Positions 41,847-47,692 of a stretch of DNA of 64,000 nt are shown here, piece by piece. The stretch is from Planctomycetota bacterium (GTDB lineage: Bacteria > Planctomycetota > UBA1135 > UBA2386). The position numbers and the translations under genes were made by a program. Location: contig JBKAGP010000001.1 of assembly GCA_046290465.1 (NCBI GenBank), forward strand, positions 1,472,001 to 1,536,000, in the 5' to 3' direction. The stretch's first letter is position 1. Each line of letters starts with the position of its first letter. Below the pieces are notes generated by a model. It made no database searches. It saw only the letters and a list, made by a program, of their open reading frames with translations, and was not told the origin of the DNA.

Positions 41847-43523
41847 ATGCGTATCCGTGCCGCGCTGCTGACGTCCGCCCTCGCCACCGCCTCCGCGTTC
41901 GCCCAGCAGAGCGAGCTGCGCGAGCGCATCGAGACGTTCTCCGCGGACCTCGCCGACCTCAACCGCCGCTACGACACACCGATGTCGGACGAACGGCGCG
42001 ACCGGCTGCGCCGCCGCTACAACGAGGAGCTGCGCGCGCTCGACGGCCTCGACTTCGAGGCGCTCGCTCGCGACGGGCGCATCGACTGGATCCTGTTCGA
42101 GAACCACCTGCGGCGCGAGCTGCACGAACTGCAGGAGCAGCAGCGGCGCGACGCCGAGCTGGGCACGCTGCTGCCGTTCGCCGACCAGATCACCGCGCTG
42201 TGCGACGCGCGCCGCAAGCTCGACGGCGTCGACGCGCGCAAGACGGCCGAGATCGTCGACGGCATCGCCAGGAGTGCCGCCGAGGTGCGCGCCCGCCTGC
42301 AGCGGGGCGAACTCGACGACACCCCGCCGCCGATCCGCGAGCGCGCCGCGCGCCGCCTGTCCGAACTGCGCCGCGCGCTGCGCGGCTGGTTCCGCTACCG
42401 CGACGGCTACGACCCGCAGTTCTCGTGGTGGGTGCGCGCGCCGCACGAGCAGGCCGACACCGGCATCGAGCGTCTCGGCGCTGCGCTGCGCTCGCTGCCG
42501 CGCGGCCAGCAGGGCGTCGACCGCACGCTGATCGGCGACCCGATCGGCGACCAGGCGCTGCAGCAGGCGCTGGCGTTCGAGTGGATCCCCTACACCCCCG
42601 CCGAACTGGTCGCGATCGCCGAACGCGAGTTCGCCTGGTGCGACGAGGAGATGGCCAAGGCCACCGAGGAGCTCGGCTGCAAGGACTGGCGCGAGGCGCT
42701 GGAGAAGACCAAGCAGAGCCACCGAGACCCCGGCGAGCAGCCGCAGCTGATCAAGGAACTGGCGCACGAGGCCATCGACTTCCTCGAGCAGCGCGAGCTG
42801 CTGACGATCCCCGAACTCGCCAAGGAGTGCTGGCGCATGTCGATGATGTCGCGCGAGGCGCAGCGGGTGAACCCGTTCTTCCTCGGCGGCAACACCATCC
42901 AGGTCAGCTTTCCGACCGACGCGATGGCGCACATCGAGAAGCTGCAGGCGCTGCGCAGCAACAACGAGCACTTCTGCCGCGCGACCGTGCACCACGAACT
43001 GATCCCCGGCCACTGGCTGCAGCAGTACTCGCAGGCCCGCCACCGCACCTGGCGCGCGCCGTTCCGGACGCCGTTCTGGATGGAGGGCTGGGCGCTCTAC
43101 TGGGAGATGCGGCTCTACGACCTCGGCCTCGCCAAGAACGCGATGGACCGGGTCGGCATGCTCTACTGGCGCAAGCACCGCTGCGCGCGGATCGTGTTCT
43201 CGCTGAACTTCCACCTCGGCCGCTGGACCGGACCGCAGTGCGTCGAATACCTGATCGAGCGCGTCGGCCACGAGCGCGCCGCGGCCGAGGGGGAGGTGCG
43301 GCGCTCGGTCGGCGGCGCATATCCGCCGCTCTACCAGGCCGCCTACATGCTCGGCGGCCTGCAGATCCGGGCCCTGCACCAAGAGCTGGTGGTGTCCGGC
43401 GAGCGCACCGAGAAGCAGTTCCACGACGAGATCCTGCGCCACAACTCGATTCCGATCGCGGTGCTGCGGGCGGCAATGGCATCGCAGCCGCCGGCCCGCA
43501 GGCTGTCGCCCTGGCGATTCTGA
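41847..43523 (+). CDS. DUF885 family secreted protein
   Basis: Signal peptide, 'HHELIPGHWLQ', 'EGWALYWE', 'YQAAYMLGG'. Confidence 0.9.
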   Translation: MRIRAALLTSALATASAFAQQSELRERIETFSADLADLNRRYDTPMSDERRDRLRRRYNEELRALDGLDFEALARDGRIDWILFENHLRRELHELQEQQRRDAELGTLLPFADQITALCDARRKLDGVDARKTAEIVDGIARSAAEVRARLQRGELDDTPPPIRERAARRLSELRRALRGWFRYRDGYDPQFSWWVRAPHEQADTGIERLGAALRSLPRGQQGVDRTLIGDPIGDQALQQALAFEWIPYTPAELVAIAEREFAWCDEEMAKATEELGCKDWREALEKTKQSHRDPGEQPQLIKELAHEAIDFLEQRELLTIPELAKECWRMSMMSREAQRVNPFFLGGNTIQVSFPTDAMAHIEKLQALRSNNEHFCRATVHHELIPGHWLQQYSQARHRTWRAPFRTPFWMEGWALYWEMRLYDLGLAKNAMDRVGMLYWRKHRCARIVFSLNFHLGRWTGPQCVEYLIERVGHERAAAEGEVRRSVGGAYPPLYQAAYMLGGLQIRALHQELVVSGERTEKQFHDEILRHNSIPIAVLRAAMASQPPARRLSPWRF

Positions 43524-43876
43524 GCGACCTCGGATGGAGCTGACCACCTGGTTGTTGGTGGCCGCGGCGACCGTGCACGGTCGGTCGGAACTCTGGTCCG
43601 CATTTCGTGAGGAACCGCCCGGCTTGGCCCTCCGGTGGCGCCCCAAGGCCAGCAGACGGCCTTGCCGACGGCTCTGGAGGCCGTGGCTGCCTCGTTGCGC
43701 GGCGGACCAACAGCCAAGTGATCCGTCGCCCTGGTGAGCGGACGCGGGCCGGCGAGAGGGTAAATCACAAGGCGAGGCCGGTCGGGGGTTTGCCTCCACC
43801 GGACAGATCGCCGATAACATCAGCCCGCGCACGGTCGTCCGTGCGCCAACACGCCCCACCAATGGAGCAAGACCCT

Positions 43877-44470
43877 ATGCGATTGACTGCAAGTGCCCTG
43901 CTTGCGGTGTGCGCTCTTGCGGCTCCGACCCTCGCCCAGACCAAGGGCCAGGAGATCAAGCCGAAGGTCGACACCGAAAAGCACTGGCGTATCGAGTGCT
44001 CGGGAATCGGCGGCTGAAGCGCGGCCGGCACCGCCCAGAGGGTCAGTTCGATCCTCAAGAAGCACAAGAACATCAAGAACCTGATCTTCGACACCACCGG
44101 TGGCGGGTACTTCCAGCTGAAGGACCCCAAGAAGGTGGTGGAGCTCGCCGACCTCAACCTGCTGCTCGAGAAGAAGCGCGCAGGCAAGAAGGTCCGCGTG
44201 CGCAAGCTCGAAGAGGTCGACCTCGAGAAGGCGGACATCGTCTACGAATGTTCGATCTCCGGCCTTGGTTGAGGGGGCACCGCCATCGAGACGCGTGACG
44301 TCTTGAAGAAGCTGGACGGTGTCATCCGCGTTCACCCGAACGGGGTGAACGGCAAGGCGCTGGTCTTCGTCAAGGACAAGAAGTCGCTGACGGAGGAGAA
44401 GGTGGAGACGGCCCTCAAGGCCACCAAGAAGCTCCGCCTGCGCAAGTTCAAGAAAGCCACCGACGTCTAG
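43877..44470 (+). CDS. Candidate exported selenoprotein with two Sec (197 aa; TGA at codons 47 and 132), tandem HMA-like domains
   Basis: GGAG RBS, signal peptide, one frame through TGA 44015 and TGA 44270 to TAG 44468; 'ECSGIGG-U-SAAGTA' and 'ECSISGLG-U-GGTAIETRDVLKKLDGV'. Confidence 0.8.
44038..44056 (+). promoter_or_regulatory. Putative SECIS hairpin for TGA 44015
   Basis: GAGGGTC-AGTTC-GATCCTC, loop 27 nt after TGA. Confidence 0.55.
44286..44306 (+). promoter_or_regulatory. Putative SECIS hairpin for TGA 44270
   Basis: TCGAGACG-CGTGA-CGTCTTGA, loop 21 nt after TGA. Confidence 0.6.
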
Positions 44471-44493
44471 TCGACGGCCGACTGACCGAACGC

Positions 44494-44532
44494 GAACGGG
44501 CCGCCACGTCCTCGAGACGTGGCGGCCCGTTC
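44494..44532. terminator. Strong hairpin between convergent genes, probable terminator
   Basis: GAACGGGCCGCCACGTC-CTCGA-GACGTGGCGGCCCGTTC; weak U-tract. Confidence 0.7.
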
Positions 44533-44599
44533 TGCGTCGTGGTCGCGGCTCGACGGCCTCTACCGCCGCCGCGACGGACGGCAGGCGCGGCCCCGCACA

Positions 44600-45160
44600 T
44601 CACGCGGCAGCCGGCAGGCTGCCCAGACGCCGCACCGAGGCGGTCGTCGCGACGGCGGCGGCGACCACCGCGATGCCGAGCCCGATGTGCGGCCCGACCG
44701 GCCCGCCAAGCTGCGTGCAGGCGTAGAGCGAGAAGCAGGTCGCGAGCACCGAGCCCACCAGCGAGACCGTCACCATCGTTCGCGCCGATGCGTCGTCGGC
44801 CGACGACGCCACCAGCTGCAGCGTCGCCGAGACCGCGAGCAGGATCAGCACGGTGACGCCGACCCAGCTGTCGATGCCCGCGGCGGTGACCGTGCCCTGC
44901 ACGCCGAGGGTGCCGAACACGCCGTTCATCGCCTCGCCGAAGCCCGCCATCGGCGCGCCTTCGATCTGCACGTTGCCGAGTCGGCCGAACGCGTCGTTCG
45001 CCGCGTGGTCGAGGGCGGCGCCGAGCTTGGACAGGTCGACGCGGAACCACGGCAACAAGCACGCGATCGCGCCGGCGGCGGCGGCGAGGGCCGGGGTCAG
45101 GGCACCGGCGGTGGCGGGACGGGACGGGTACGGACGGGTGGCGGCAACGGCTTCGGGCAT
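44600..45160 (-). CDS. Hypothetical membrane protein (about 4 TM)
   Basis: AAGGAG RBS, 'LLPWFRV', hydrophobic segments, 'PHIGLG'. Confidence 0.75.
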   Translation of the reverse strand: MPEAVAATRPYPSRPATAGALTPALAAAAGAIACLLPWFRVDLSKLGAALDHAANDAFGRLGNVQIEGAPMAGFGEAMNGVFGTLGVQGTVTAAGIDSWVGVTVLILLAVSATLQLVASSADDASARTMVTVSLVGSVLATCFSLYACTQLGGPVGPHIGLGIAVVAAAVATTASVRRLGSLPAAA

Positions 45161-45371: not shown

Positions 45372-45785
45372 ATGGCATCCCGACGCAAGCAGGCCGACGA
45401 CCGCACGCCGCAGATCACCGAAGCCGAACTGACCGTGCTCAAGTCGTTCTGGAACGACGGGCCGGCGACCGTGCGCGACCTGCTGACCCGGCTCGGCACC
45501 GAGTGGGCCTACACCACCGTGCAGACGCTGGTGTCGCGGCTCGTCGACAAGGGCCACGTGCGCGCCGACCGCCGCGGCGTCGCCCACGTGTTCGCGGCCG
45601 CGCGCGACCGCGAGGAATTCGCCCAGCTGCGCGTCGAGGAGGTCGCCAGCTCGCTGCTCGACGGCGCGGTCGCGCCGCTGGTGCTGCGGCTGGTCGAGAA
45701 CGGCAGGTTCTCCACCGACGACATCAAGCACTTCCGCAAGCTGCTGCGCGACGCCGAGCAGCGCAACAAGGGAGGCGACGCGTGA
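45372..45785 (+). CDS. BlaI/MecI/CopY family repressor
   Basis: 'ITEAELTVLKSFW..GPATVR', 'WAYTTVQTLVSRLVDKG'. Confidence 0.93.
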   Translation: MASRRKQADDRTPQITEAELTVLKSFWNDGPATVRDLLTRLGTEWAYTTVQTLVSRLVDKGHVRADRRGVAHVFAAARDREEFAQLRVEEVASSLLDGAVAPLVLRLVENGRFSTDDIKHFRKLLRDAEQRNKGGDA

Positions 45786-47692
45786 CGTTCCTGCTCGCCA
45801 ACGCCGCGATCGCGACCCTGCTCGCGGCGATCGTCTACGCGGTCGGTCGGCTGGCCCGGCCGCAGCCGGCCGTCATGCACGGGCTGTGGCTGCTGGTCGT
45901 GCTCAAGCTGGTCACGCCGCCGCTGTTCGAAGTGCCGGTCGACGCCTCCTGGTGGCGCACGGCCGAGCCGGCCGCGCGCGAGGCGTCCGGAGCCAACGCG
46001 TCGCCCACCACCCTCGCCACGTCGCCGCCGCGGCTCGGCCCCGACGACGTCGTGACCGTGCACCCGCTGCCGCCGGCCGCAGCGGCCGCCGCCCCGCCGA
46101 GCGGGCTCGAAACGACGTTGCTGGTCGCGTGGACCTGCGCCAGCATGCTGGTGCTGCTGGTCACCGCCGCCGGTGCCCTGCGCGGAAGCCGGCGCCTGCG
46201 TGCGCTGGCGCCGGTGCCGCCTTGGTTGCGCCGCGAGGTCGAGCAGCTCGCCGCCCGCATGTCGCTGCGCGTTCCCGAGCTGTGCGACGACCCGAGCGCA
46301 GCGGGCCCCTACCTGTGGACGCTCGGCCGCACGCGGCTGGTGCTGCCGGCCAGGTTGCTGCAGCAGCAGCCAGAACGCGGCCGCGCCGCGGTGCTCGCCC
46401 ACGAGCTGGCCCACCTGCAGCGACGCGACCACTGGGTCGCGCGCGCCGAGGTGTTGCTGACCGCGGCGTTGTTCTGGCACCCGCTGTACTGGTTCGCGCG
46501 GGCCCGCATGCGCCTGTGGGCCGAGCTCGCCAGCGACGCGGTCGCGGTGCGCACGGTGCCCGGCGCGAGCCTCGAATACGCGTCGATGCTCGTCGACGCC
46601 GCCGCGCGTCCGGCGTCCCCATCCACCGGTCCGGTGACCGCGGTGCTCGCAGCGAGACCGTCGGCACGGGCCGCATTCGAACGGAGGTTGAAGATGATCC
46701 TGAACGAGAACCTGCCCCGCCGCGCCTCGCGCGCCTGGCTCCTGCCCTTTGCCGGCCTGTTCGCCGGCCTGTTCGCCCTGCCGGTCACGGCACAGGACCC
46801 AAAGCCGCGCGAGACCGTCAAGGTCGAGATACGCGTCAACGGCAAGAAGGTCGAGGGACTGACCGGCGCGCAGCAGAAGGCCCTGCTCGAGCTGCTGCAG
46901 CAACGCGACGGCCAGAGCCGGGATCGCGCGGCCGGAAGGCGCCGCGCCAGCGAGCGCGCCGGGCGGATCGTCGACCGTTCGCGTCGGCCGGGCATCCGCG
47001 TCGACGGCAGCATCGGCGAAGAGATGCGCCGGGGTCTGGCCGAGGCGCGGCGTGAGATCCAGAAGGACCAGGACCTGGCCGAGCTCGGCATCACCGACGA
47101 GGTCGTCAAGATGATCGACGGCATCGCCAACGGCGACGGCATCGAGCAGCACCTCGACGGCGTCATCAAGGCCGCGATGGAAGGCGCCGGCGACCTGGTG
47201 CTCGACGAGCTCGAGAACGACCCCGACCTGCAGAAGCTCGGCCTCGACAAGGGCATCGCCAACCTGGTGAAGGGCTTCCTCGGCAACCAGCACAACCAGC
47301 GCATGATCGGCGACCTCGCCCGCACGGCGATCGACTCGGCGCTCTCCGAAGCACGCGCCGAGATCCGCAACGACCAGGACCTCGCCAGGCTCGGCATCGC
47401 CGGCGACGTCGAGAAGCTGATCGACTCGGTGATCTCGGGCGGCGGCGACTTCGAGGGCGACCTGGAGCGCGTCGTCGAGCGCGCGATGAAGGCCGCGATC
47501 GAGCCCGAAGGCCGTTCGCCGCGCACGCGCGGCAAGCTGCGCGTCGGCCGGAAGCCGCAGCAGCCGAAGGCCGAGCAACAGCCCGCCGACCGCGAACTGC
47601 GCGAACTCGAGCGCGCCCTCGAGCAGGCCAACGCCGAGCTCGAACGCGCCAAGGCCCGCCTCGACGAGCTGCGCCGCCAGCGCCGTCGCTAG
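45782..47692 (+). CDS. BlaR1-like M56 metallopeptidase with non-PBP C-terminal region
   Basis: GTGA overlap, 'HGLWLLVVLKLVTPP', 'LAHELAHLQRRD', 'FWHPLYW', 'ELASD'. Confidence 0.9.
   Translation: MTFLLANAAIATLLAAIVYAVGRLARPQPAVMHGLWLLVVLKLVTPPLFEVPVDASWWRTAEPAAREASGANASPTTLATSPPRLGPDDVVTVHPLPPAAAAAAPPSGLETTLLVAWTCASMLVLLVTAAGALRGSRRLRALAPVPPWLRREVEQLAARMSLRVPELCDDPSAAGPYLWTLGRTRLVLPARLLQQQPERGRAAVLAHELAHLQRRDHWVARAEVLLTAALFWHPLYWFARARMRLWAELASDAVAVRTVPGASLEYASMLVDAAARPASPSTGPVTAVLAARPSARAAFERRLKMILNENLPRRASRAWLLPFAGLFAGLFALPVTAQDPKPRETVKVEIRVNGKKVEGLTGAQQKALLELLQQRDGQSRDRAAGRRRASERAGRIVDRSRRPGIRVDGSIGEEMRRGLAEARREIQKDQDLAELGITDEVVKMIDGIANGDGIEQHLDGVIKAAMEGAGDLVLDELENDPDLQKLGLDKGIANLVKGFLGNQHNQRMIGDLARTAIDSALSEARAEIRNDQDLARLGIAGDVEKLIDSVISGGGDFEGDLERVVERAMKAAIEPEGRSPRTRGKLRVGRKPQQPKAEQQPADRELRELERALEQANAELERAKARLDELRRQRRR

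Follow-up and report, generated by a model that had tools for sequence, protein, structure and literature searches.

A Planctomycetota family of tandem HMA-like proteins that apparently carry a lone selenocysteine in each domain

MerP, CopZ/Atx1 and the tandem domains of CopA and ATP7B bind two-coordinate Cu(I) or Hg(II) by a Cys-x-x-Cys pair held in one loop, and MerP is an exported single-purpose HMA protein. A number of selenoproteins are related to the HMA proteins, and a 2026 review (PMC13188914) lists a cation-transporting ATPase with the motif UxxC, the UxxU metal-binding (seleno)protein NF041115 and MbdU with the motif CU, as well as families with the motifs UxxT and UxxS; neither PF00403 nor the term 'HMA' occurs in the accessible portion of that review. 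Metal-binding selenocysteine (Sec) in other systems has been treated in a preprint (Haft, 10.1101/2022.07.06.499078, in its accessible part), and the GOS survey (PMC2398784) is described in its accessible text as having required Cys-containing homologues. New bacterial selenoprotein families are reported regularly, and a multi-Sec exported HMA protein with neither a second ligand nor a Cys counterpart is unusual among them. In the accessible portions of the literature we met with no account of an HMA family with tandem domains and a lone Sec in each, MbdU and UXX-star having been compared by means of their NCBIfam models.

The gene described here lies at 43877-44470 (+) of the window, by which we mean the whole stretch of 64,000 nucleotides that was analysed, from a Planctomycetota genome consisting of a single 6.59-Mb contig. 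Its predicted product finds its best structural and its best weak profile matches in MerP, CopZ/Atx1 and the CopA/ATP7B tandem domains, yet where those proteins have the Cys-x-x-Cys loop it would have a lone Sec in each domain. The MerP model (TIGR02052, cut-off 92.55 bits) gives 14-26 bits, below its cut-off, and the neighbouring genes are unrelated to mer genes. Like the window protein, the UxxU protein NF041115 is small and HMA-like and has two Sec, and its model weakly matches domain 2 (17-26 bits); however, it has both Sec in one loop of a single domain, whereas the lone-Sec family has one per domain, and no U-x-x-U is present in the latter, scores of 17.0 bits for the window protein and 19-26 bits for other members falling below the cut-off of 95 bits. 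With MbdU (NF045648) the window protein gave no match at E <= 10 and the other members none at E <= 0.01, and there is no C-U dipeptide.

Table-11 ORF calling splits the gene into three pieces (43877-44017, 44135-44272 and 44303-44470). A sequence-only reading of this DNA had proposed that the frame in which the ORF track ends at 44017 runs on through two TGAs to the TAG at 44468, and reading of the sequence confirmed this, the frame from 43877 to 44470 being open save for the TGAs at 44015 and 44270. The two TGAs do occupy equivalent positions of an internal repeat, and the motifs around them are as had been quoted (ECSGIGG-U-SAAGTA at site 1, ECSISGLG-U-GGTA at site 2). The parts of the gene are as follows.

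43864..43867, + strand: Shine-Dalgarno-like GGAG, 9 nt 5' of the ATG, read from the sequence
43877..44470, + strand: full coding sequence, 197 codons plus TAG, with predicted Sec at codons 47 and 132
43877, + strand: start codon ATG; orthologues begin at an equivalent M-R-[LI]
43877..43936, + strand: probable Sec-type signal peptide, residues 1-20 (...P-T-L-A / Q-T-K)
43973..44227, + strand: HMA-like domain 1, residues 33-117, βαββαβ, from the secondary structure of the model and conservation
44015..44017, + strand: TGA 1, predicted Sec47, codon 47, at the N-terminus of helix 1 of domain 1
44038..44056, + strand: putative SECIS hairpin 1, 7-bp stem GAGGGUC/GAUCCUC, loop AGUUC, stem beginning 20 nt past the UGA
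44237..44455, + strand: HMA-like domain 2, residues 121-193, from the model, conservation, a weak Pfam HMA match and the ATP7B profile alignment
44270..44272, + strand: TGA 2, predicted Sec132, codon 132, aligned with the first Cys of GMxCxxC
44286..44306, + strand: putative SECIS hairpin 2, 7-8-bp stem UCGAGACG/CGUCUUGA, loop CGUGA, stem beginning 14 nt past the UGA (core of 7 bp at 44287-44305, eighth pair 44286/44306)
44468..44470, + strand: true stop codon TAG, read from the sequence
44494..44532, + strand: post-stop hairpin, 17-bp perfect inverted repeat, terminator-like, without a U tract

The N-terminus of the product has a basic start, a hydrophobic core and small residues followed by a conserved Q-T (family pattern ...A-x-A-Q-T), and this sequence, together with the low confidence of the structural model in the same region, suggests export by way of a Sec-type signal peptide. 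At the other end of the gene, the terminator-like hairpin that had been noted after the stop codon is indeed a perfect hairpin of 17 bp, with a fold of -55.8 kcal/mol (z -7.09 versus shuffles). Its assignment as a terminator fared less well, as there is no U tract and a consensus terminator scan of 43500-44700 returned 0 sites, leaving the hairpin uncalled. A consensus promoter scan of 43500-44700 found nothing. A 241-nt contig from an RNA library covers 43840-44080, that is, the start codon through TGA 1 and a further 63 nt; such a contig is not proof of transcription.

Homologues with a conserved TGA at both sites had been named as a check on the sequence-only reading, and both TGAs are in fact kept in all 63 distinct relatives read at the DNA level, which derive from Planctomycetota MAGs and marine metagenome contigs and range in identity down to ~30%; no codon other than TGA was found at either site among them. 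Extraction of these 63 sequences was anchored on U, and the independent evidence is that of the stop counts and translations from the searches themselves. When 41 related genomes were searched in six frames, 19 proved to carry the gene. Full-length copies number 18 (that of the own genome and 17 others, 77% to 28% identity), and each has exactly two in-frame TGAs, which fall in single alignment columns in 18/18; one of these copies has an additional in-frame TAG, and a truncated copy from the same search has one TGA. From a scan in which each species was represented by a single genome came 43 loci, nearly all of them titled as Planctomycetota MAGs, with U at both sites in 43/43, and merging of these loci with the 18-copy set gave 45 distinct sequences. 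In a 401-genome sample of the phylum, searched with a marine member as the query, there were 19 matches in 18 genomes, 19/19 of them '2 TGA'; this sample contributed two further families, and marine metagenome contigs gave more members. Conservation on this scale (18/18, 43/43 and 19/19) excludes occurrence of the TGAs by chance, in line with the earlier argument that two chance nonsense mutations at homologous sites are unlikely. Sequencing error, which had been named as a possible refutation, is countered by independent assemblies from three other samples, in which both TGAs are unchanged and the contigs differ at 1, 12 and 12 other positions (the single difference in one of them is not itemised in the table).

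No form with Cys in place of Sec occurs among the 63 sequences read at the DNA level. The only Cys form seen is P0101, a database protein of 140 aa known from the protein record alone, in which the sequence begins past site 1 and the residue at site 2 is Cys. A further homologue, P0007 (187 aa, protein record only), has Lys and Asp/Gly at the two sites, and P0065 (260 aa, protein record) is a triple HMA protein with G-M-T-W-x-x-C, the W of which is probably TGA. Ordinary CxxC HMA proteins, which lie outside the lone-Sec family, also align at these sites.

The genes selA, selB, selC and selD, for which a search had likewise been proposed, are all represented in the genome. The tRNA-Sec scores 72.8 bits (gathering score 47) and has the anticodon TCA according to ARAGORN, SelB scores 353.7 bits (cut-off 242), and SelA adjoins SelD (G000:C1:1309619-1310557 (-) and 1310644-1311717 (-), outside the window). 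SelD has its own in-frame TGA and, to judge from its sequence, is itself a selenoprotein. Co-occurrence with SelA was considered as support and rejected as not discriminating: all 19 genomes with the gene have SelA, but so do 40/41 of the genomes searched overall.

We propose that SelB and tRNA-Sec would read each in-frame UGA as Sec, with decoding at each UGA under the control of a small SECIS hairpin (stem of 7 bp, loop C/A-G-U-G/U-N) 14 or 20 nt downstream, and that the product would be one exported protein of ~177 mature residues with two βαββαβ HMA-fold domains. That the two UGAs are decoded in this manner, by SelB and tRNA-Sec under the direction of intragenic SECIS elements and within an exported protein of two HMA domains, seems to us almost certain from the comparative sequence evidence; for the explanation as a whole we would put the probability at about 0.8.

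The sequence-only reading had described a hairpin of 7-8 bp with GU in its loop 3' of each TGA, and both hairpins stand, with the qualification that the one at site 1 is not exceptional when folded singly. The accompanying SECIS check came out in their favour. With its input limited to 60 nt from each TGA onward, RNAalifold predicts both hairpins unaided, and in the 63 sequences 96.5% of the cells of the site 1 stem are paired, versus 31-49% in slid controls, in which the 3' arm is displaced by 1-3 nt, the corresponding values for the site 2 stem being 99.0% and 31-49%. Double-change cells number 47 at site 1 (10.9 +/- 2.5 in column shuffles) and 80 at site 2 (21.4 +/- 3.2), counts that overstate the number of independent events as the sequences are related; the slid controls retain this relatedness and are the fairer comparison. 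In single-sequence folding, site 2 gave z -3.19, with 0/200 shuffles as good, and site 1 gave z -1.32, with 22/200 shuffles as good, so that the support for the site 1 hairpin comes from covariation. Stem sequences vary widely across clades, the register and the loop remaining fixed, and within the loop consensus C/A-G-U-G/U-N the invariant positions are G32 and U33 at site 1 and C25 and G26 at site 2. In two other samples there is a strain variant, 44042 G>A (Val56 to Ile), by which a G.U pair in stem 1 becomes A-U. The SelD hairpin of the same genome, taken as a positive control, has 9 bp, a similar distance from its TGA and a different loop (CGGGC), and so supports the placement of the hairpins and not the loop consensus. 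Both hairpins lie inside the codons of helix 1, and some of the invariance of the protein therefore also reflects constraint on the RNA, an example being Arg140, which corresponds to the loop CGU; the overlap of SECIS and helix-1 codons is a clear case of dual constraint on RNA and protein.

In some database translations W stands at each of the two sites (the full-length proteins P0002, P0091 and P0100), which would suit a reading of the TGAs that makes no use of selenium, whether by reassignment of TGA (code 4 or 25) or by near-cognate read-through inserting Trp, Cys or Arg. At the DNA level, however, the codon behind these W residues is TGA. It stands at both sites in contigs that share 97% and 89% identity with P0002, and the W in P0002 is therefore a code-4 gene call; the W of P0100 is likewise TGA in the 97%/89%-identical contigs, and no relative was found with a real codon for Trp, Gly or Arg, residues that had been named at the outset as evidence against Sec. 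Moreover, TGA still serves as a stop, because 27 of the 44 complete close-clade copies also end on it (13 end on TAG and 4 on TAA), and conservation ceases past the terminal TGA. Covarying hairpins stand at a fixed distance from the internal TGAs and at none of the terminal ones, and the genome has a full Sec system. Taken with these observations, selenium-free decoding is very improbable. Still less credit can be given to the idea that the region is a decayed pseudogene or three small ORFs. Table-11 calling does yield exactly the three pieces, and public calls are similar: a profile search of 1.84 billion representatives gave 95 hits, most of which end at profile position 46, span ~53-130 or begin at 132. 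Against this, 63 distinct sequences retain the two 'nonsense' codons across deep divergence, the predicted domains cross the piece boundaries at pLDDT above 90, and all three segments are under purifying selection, with a median pairwise dN/dS of 0.27 before TGA 1, 0.48 between the TGAs and 0.31 after TGA 2 and with third-position changes dominating each segment. Coding conservation thus continues past both TGAs (dN/dS <1 in all segments), where its absence had been named as a possible refutation of Sec decoding. The pseudogene or three-ORF explanation is already refuted by TGA conservation, dN/dS, the domain model and the phylum sample, and the boundaries of the public hits indicate instead that gene callers cut at the TGAs.

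Decoding of the TGAs as Sec has consequences for public data. A named collection holds 210 fragments of 30-107 aa, the name shown being 'hypothetical protein' in each case, and only two near-full-length entries, one with false Trp residues and the other P0101. The earlier prediction that standard gene callers fragment the gene is thereby borne out, over 200 'hypothetical' fragments being cut exactly at the TGAs. On comparison of sequences, 43877-44470 can be taken as confirmed to be a real single gene, the public copies of which are unnamed fragments. As these copies are mis-called, either as fragments or with a false Trp, annotation pipelines and selenoprotein catalogues are correctable. The family adds a multi-Sec member, found in Planctomycetota MAGs and marine metagenome contigs, to the bacterial selenoproteome; it is confined, as far as searched, to part of the Planctomycetota, and the names of contigs and MAGs suggest freshwater and other sources also. 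Because Cys never replaces Sec among the 63 sequences read at the DNA level, the family is invisible to searches based on Sec/Cys pairs, and it shows how a family can be missed by discovery methods that depend on homologues with Cys.

An AlphaFold2 model made with an 18-sequence alignment (pLDDT 86.8, pTM 0.77) shows βαββαβ units at residues 33-117 and 121-193, joined by three residues, with residues 1-28 disordered (pLDDT below 50) and with Sec47 and Sec132 each at the N-terminus of the first helix of its own unit. The top Foldseek matches were the tandem HMA domains of Bacillus subtilis CopA (E 1.2e-6) and ATP7B; a single domain superposes on CopZ (6ff2) with an rmsd of 1.3 Å (TMt 0.89). The arrangement of the two domains fits no template well; in comparison with CopA their relative placement is different, with an rmsd of ~15 Å over both. 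The Pfam HMA model (PF00403) gives 20.7 bits on residues 126-184, in domain 2 only and below the cut-off of 24.8, and 14/18 members match it at E <= 0.01 (best 9.3e-5). All NCBIfam models scored far short of their cut-offs, the best weak matches being to MerTP, CopZ, MerP and UxxU metal-binding. Structure prediction and fold search confirm the tandem HMA-like fold that had been proposed from the sequence. The identity of the domains as HMA is upheld by fold but not by score (20.7 versus 24.8 bits), and the protein is not a scored member of the family.

A profile alignment of the family to the metal-binding domains of ATP7B matches Sec132 to Cys1 of GMTCxxC and Thr135 to Cys2, in agreement with the proposal that Sec takes the place of the first metal-binding Cys. 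The residues invariant in 63/63 are U47, A49, A53, L60, D72, T74, U132 and R140, and W37 is present in 57/63. The second Cys of GMxCxxC is absent in both domains, as had been claimed, and the associated claim that Thr follows instead holds for domain 2, where residue 135 (U132+3) is Thr or Ser in 63/63, but not for domain 1, which has U-x-A-[A/P] with Ala or Pro at the +3 position in 63/63. A Cys 5-6 residues upstream of the Sec had also been pointed out; one is found 6-7 residues upstream in only 10/63 (domain 1) and 13/63 (domain 2), and it does not belong to the site. Cys occurs at U132+4 in 16/63. From the invariants of the 63 sequences, Sec alone, one per domain, makes up the family-wide conserved residues of the thiol/selenol type.

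The same genome encodes another exported selenoprotein of the tandem-HMA type, in which each domain has the canonical GMTUGGC, at about 2,991,400-2,992,050 (-) of G000:C1 (L041 1426-2052 (-)), outside the window. The gene adjoins an ORF for an RND efflux pump, and the product scores 81 bits with Pfam HMA and 84 bits with the CopZ model, versus ~20 bits for the lone-Sec family. With HMA-domain U-x-x-C selenoproteins of this kind the lone-Sec family has in common the ferredoxin-like HMA fold, Sec at Cys1 at the start of helix 1 and, as in the paralogue, the exported tandem architecture. The SECIS type is also the same, a stem-CGUGA-stem hairpin lying 3' of each TGA of the paralogue, in helix-1 codons and in the register of site 2. 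In contrast, the lone-Sec family has no Cys at +3 in any domain and no efflux-pump neighbour, and its domain 1 has two extra residues between Sec and hairpin. The lone-Sec family is descended from metal-binding domains, and the paralogue probably shows what the ancestral state looked like. There are also relatives with three domains and three Sec (L096:1477-2292 (-) and L102:1147-1977 (+)), in which an extra N-terminal lone-Sec module (KGLAU... and KGMTU..., respectively) is present and the same hairpin type lies 3' of the third TGA, and in L101 the extra N-terminal third module has neither Sec nor Cys.

As to function, we lean, at a little under even odds, towards a protein that binds or hands on a soft metal ion by way of selenolates of different domains or molecules. 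Each domain would present one selenolate at the place taken in copper and mercury chaperones by Cys1 of GMxCxxC, and the metal, which may be Cu(I), Hg(II), Ag(I) or, with Asp72, of the Zn/Cd type, would be held between selenolates and not within one CxxC loop, so that the protein might act as a Sec-dependent periplasmic or extracellular metal scavenger or chaperone. We favour a role of this kind because the fold and affinities are those of metal chaperones, because there is a canonical paralogue of the metal type and because the modules occur in twos and threes; the best family matches, weak as they are, are all to metal proteins (HMA, MerP, CopZ, MerTP and UxxU metal-binding). No metal-related gene neighbourhood was found among the loci checked (65 related loci, and the flanking ORFs of 18).

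Alternatively, and with the same decoding, the selenols may serve redox chemistry, in an exported selenol, diselenide or selenenyl-sulfide oxidoreductase or a peroxidase built on a ferredoxin-like scaffold, which we consider rather unlikely. In the thiol-oxidoreductase literature U-x-x-T/S at a strand-helix junction is a typical redox motif, and domain 2, like the CxxS/CxxT motifs, has U-x-x-T/S at the junction of a β-strand with an α-helix, the Thr or Ser at Sec+3 being present in 63/63 and a Cys at Sec+4, one helix turn on, in 16/63. However, the fold is not thioredoxin-like or that of any thiol oxidoreductase, all sequence affinities are to metal-binding HMA proteins, and domain 1 has no hydroxyl residue, nor indeed any resolving residue (U-x-A-A). 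That none of the 63 sequences read at the DNA level has Cys in place of Sec is no less compatible with catalysis than with metal binding. The neighbourhood without metal genes also favours redox chemistry, and in one genus a thioredoxin-like protein lies directly downstream (L097, L104), but no reductant partner is conserved nearby. The family table of PMC13188914, in its accessible part, consists mostly of thiol-redox families, with the motifs UxxC, CxxU, UxxT and UxxS, and its abstract links selenoproteins to antioxidant defence.

With metal handling still our preference, a slightly more tentative hypothesis is that this always-Sec family uses a lone-selenolate HMA module in arrays of two or three, with a metal or diselenide site formed between domains or molecules. 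If this is true, the inter-domain all-selenolate coordination or redox design is one not described for HMA proteins. A single selenolate per HMA domain also raises a concrete chemical question, namely which extracellular tasks lie within reach of two or three selenolates set apart from one another but beyond that of Cys-x-x-Cys.

The gene neighbourhood was considered as a guide to function and rejected. A DUF885 gene lies upstream (41850-43523 (+) of the window) and is adjacent in 26/65 loci, all of the close clade. Downstream lie a BlaI-type repressor and a BlaR1/M56 peptidase (45372-45785 (+) and 45785-47692 (+)), a pair conserved in 0/65 loci, and, taken individually, BlaI, BlaR1 and two hypothetical neighbours in the window are conserved in 0-2/65. 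In other clades, 43 ORFs flanking the gene at 18 loci were compared with Pfam, and the families that they matched were unrelated. In genus g47 (L097 and L104) a Thioredoxin_7 protein is encoded directly downstream and an alpha-L-fucosidase upstream, an arrangement seen in that clade only.
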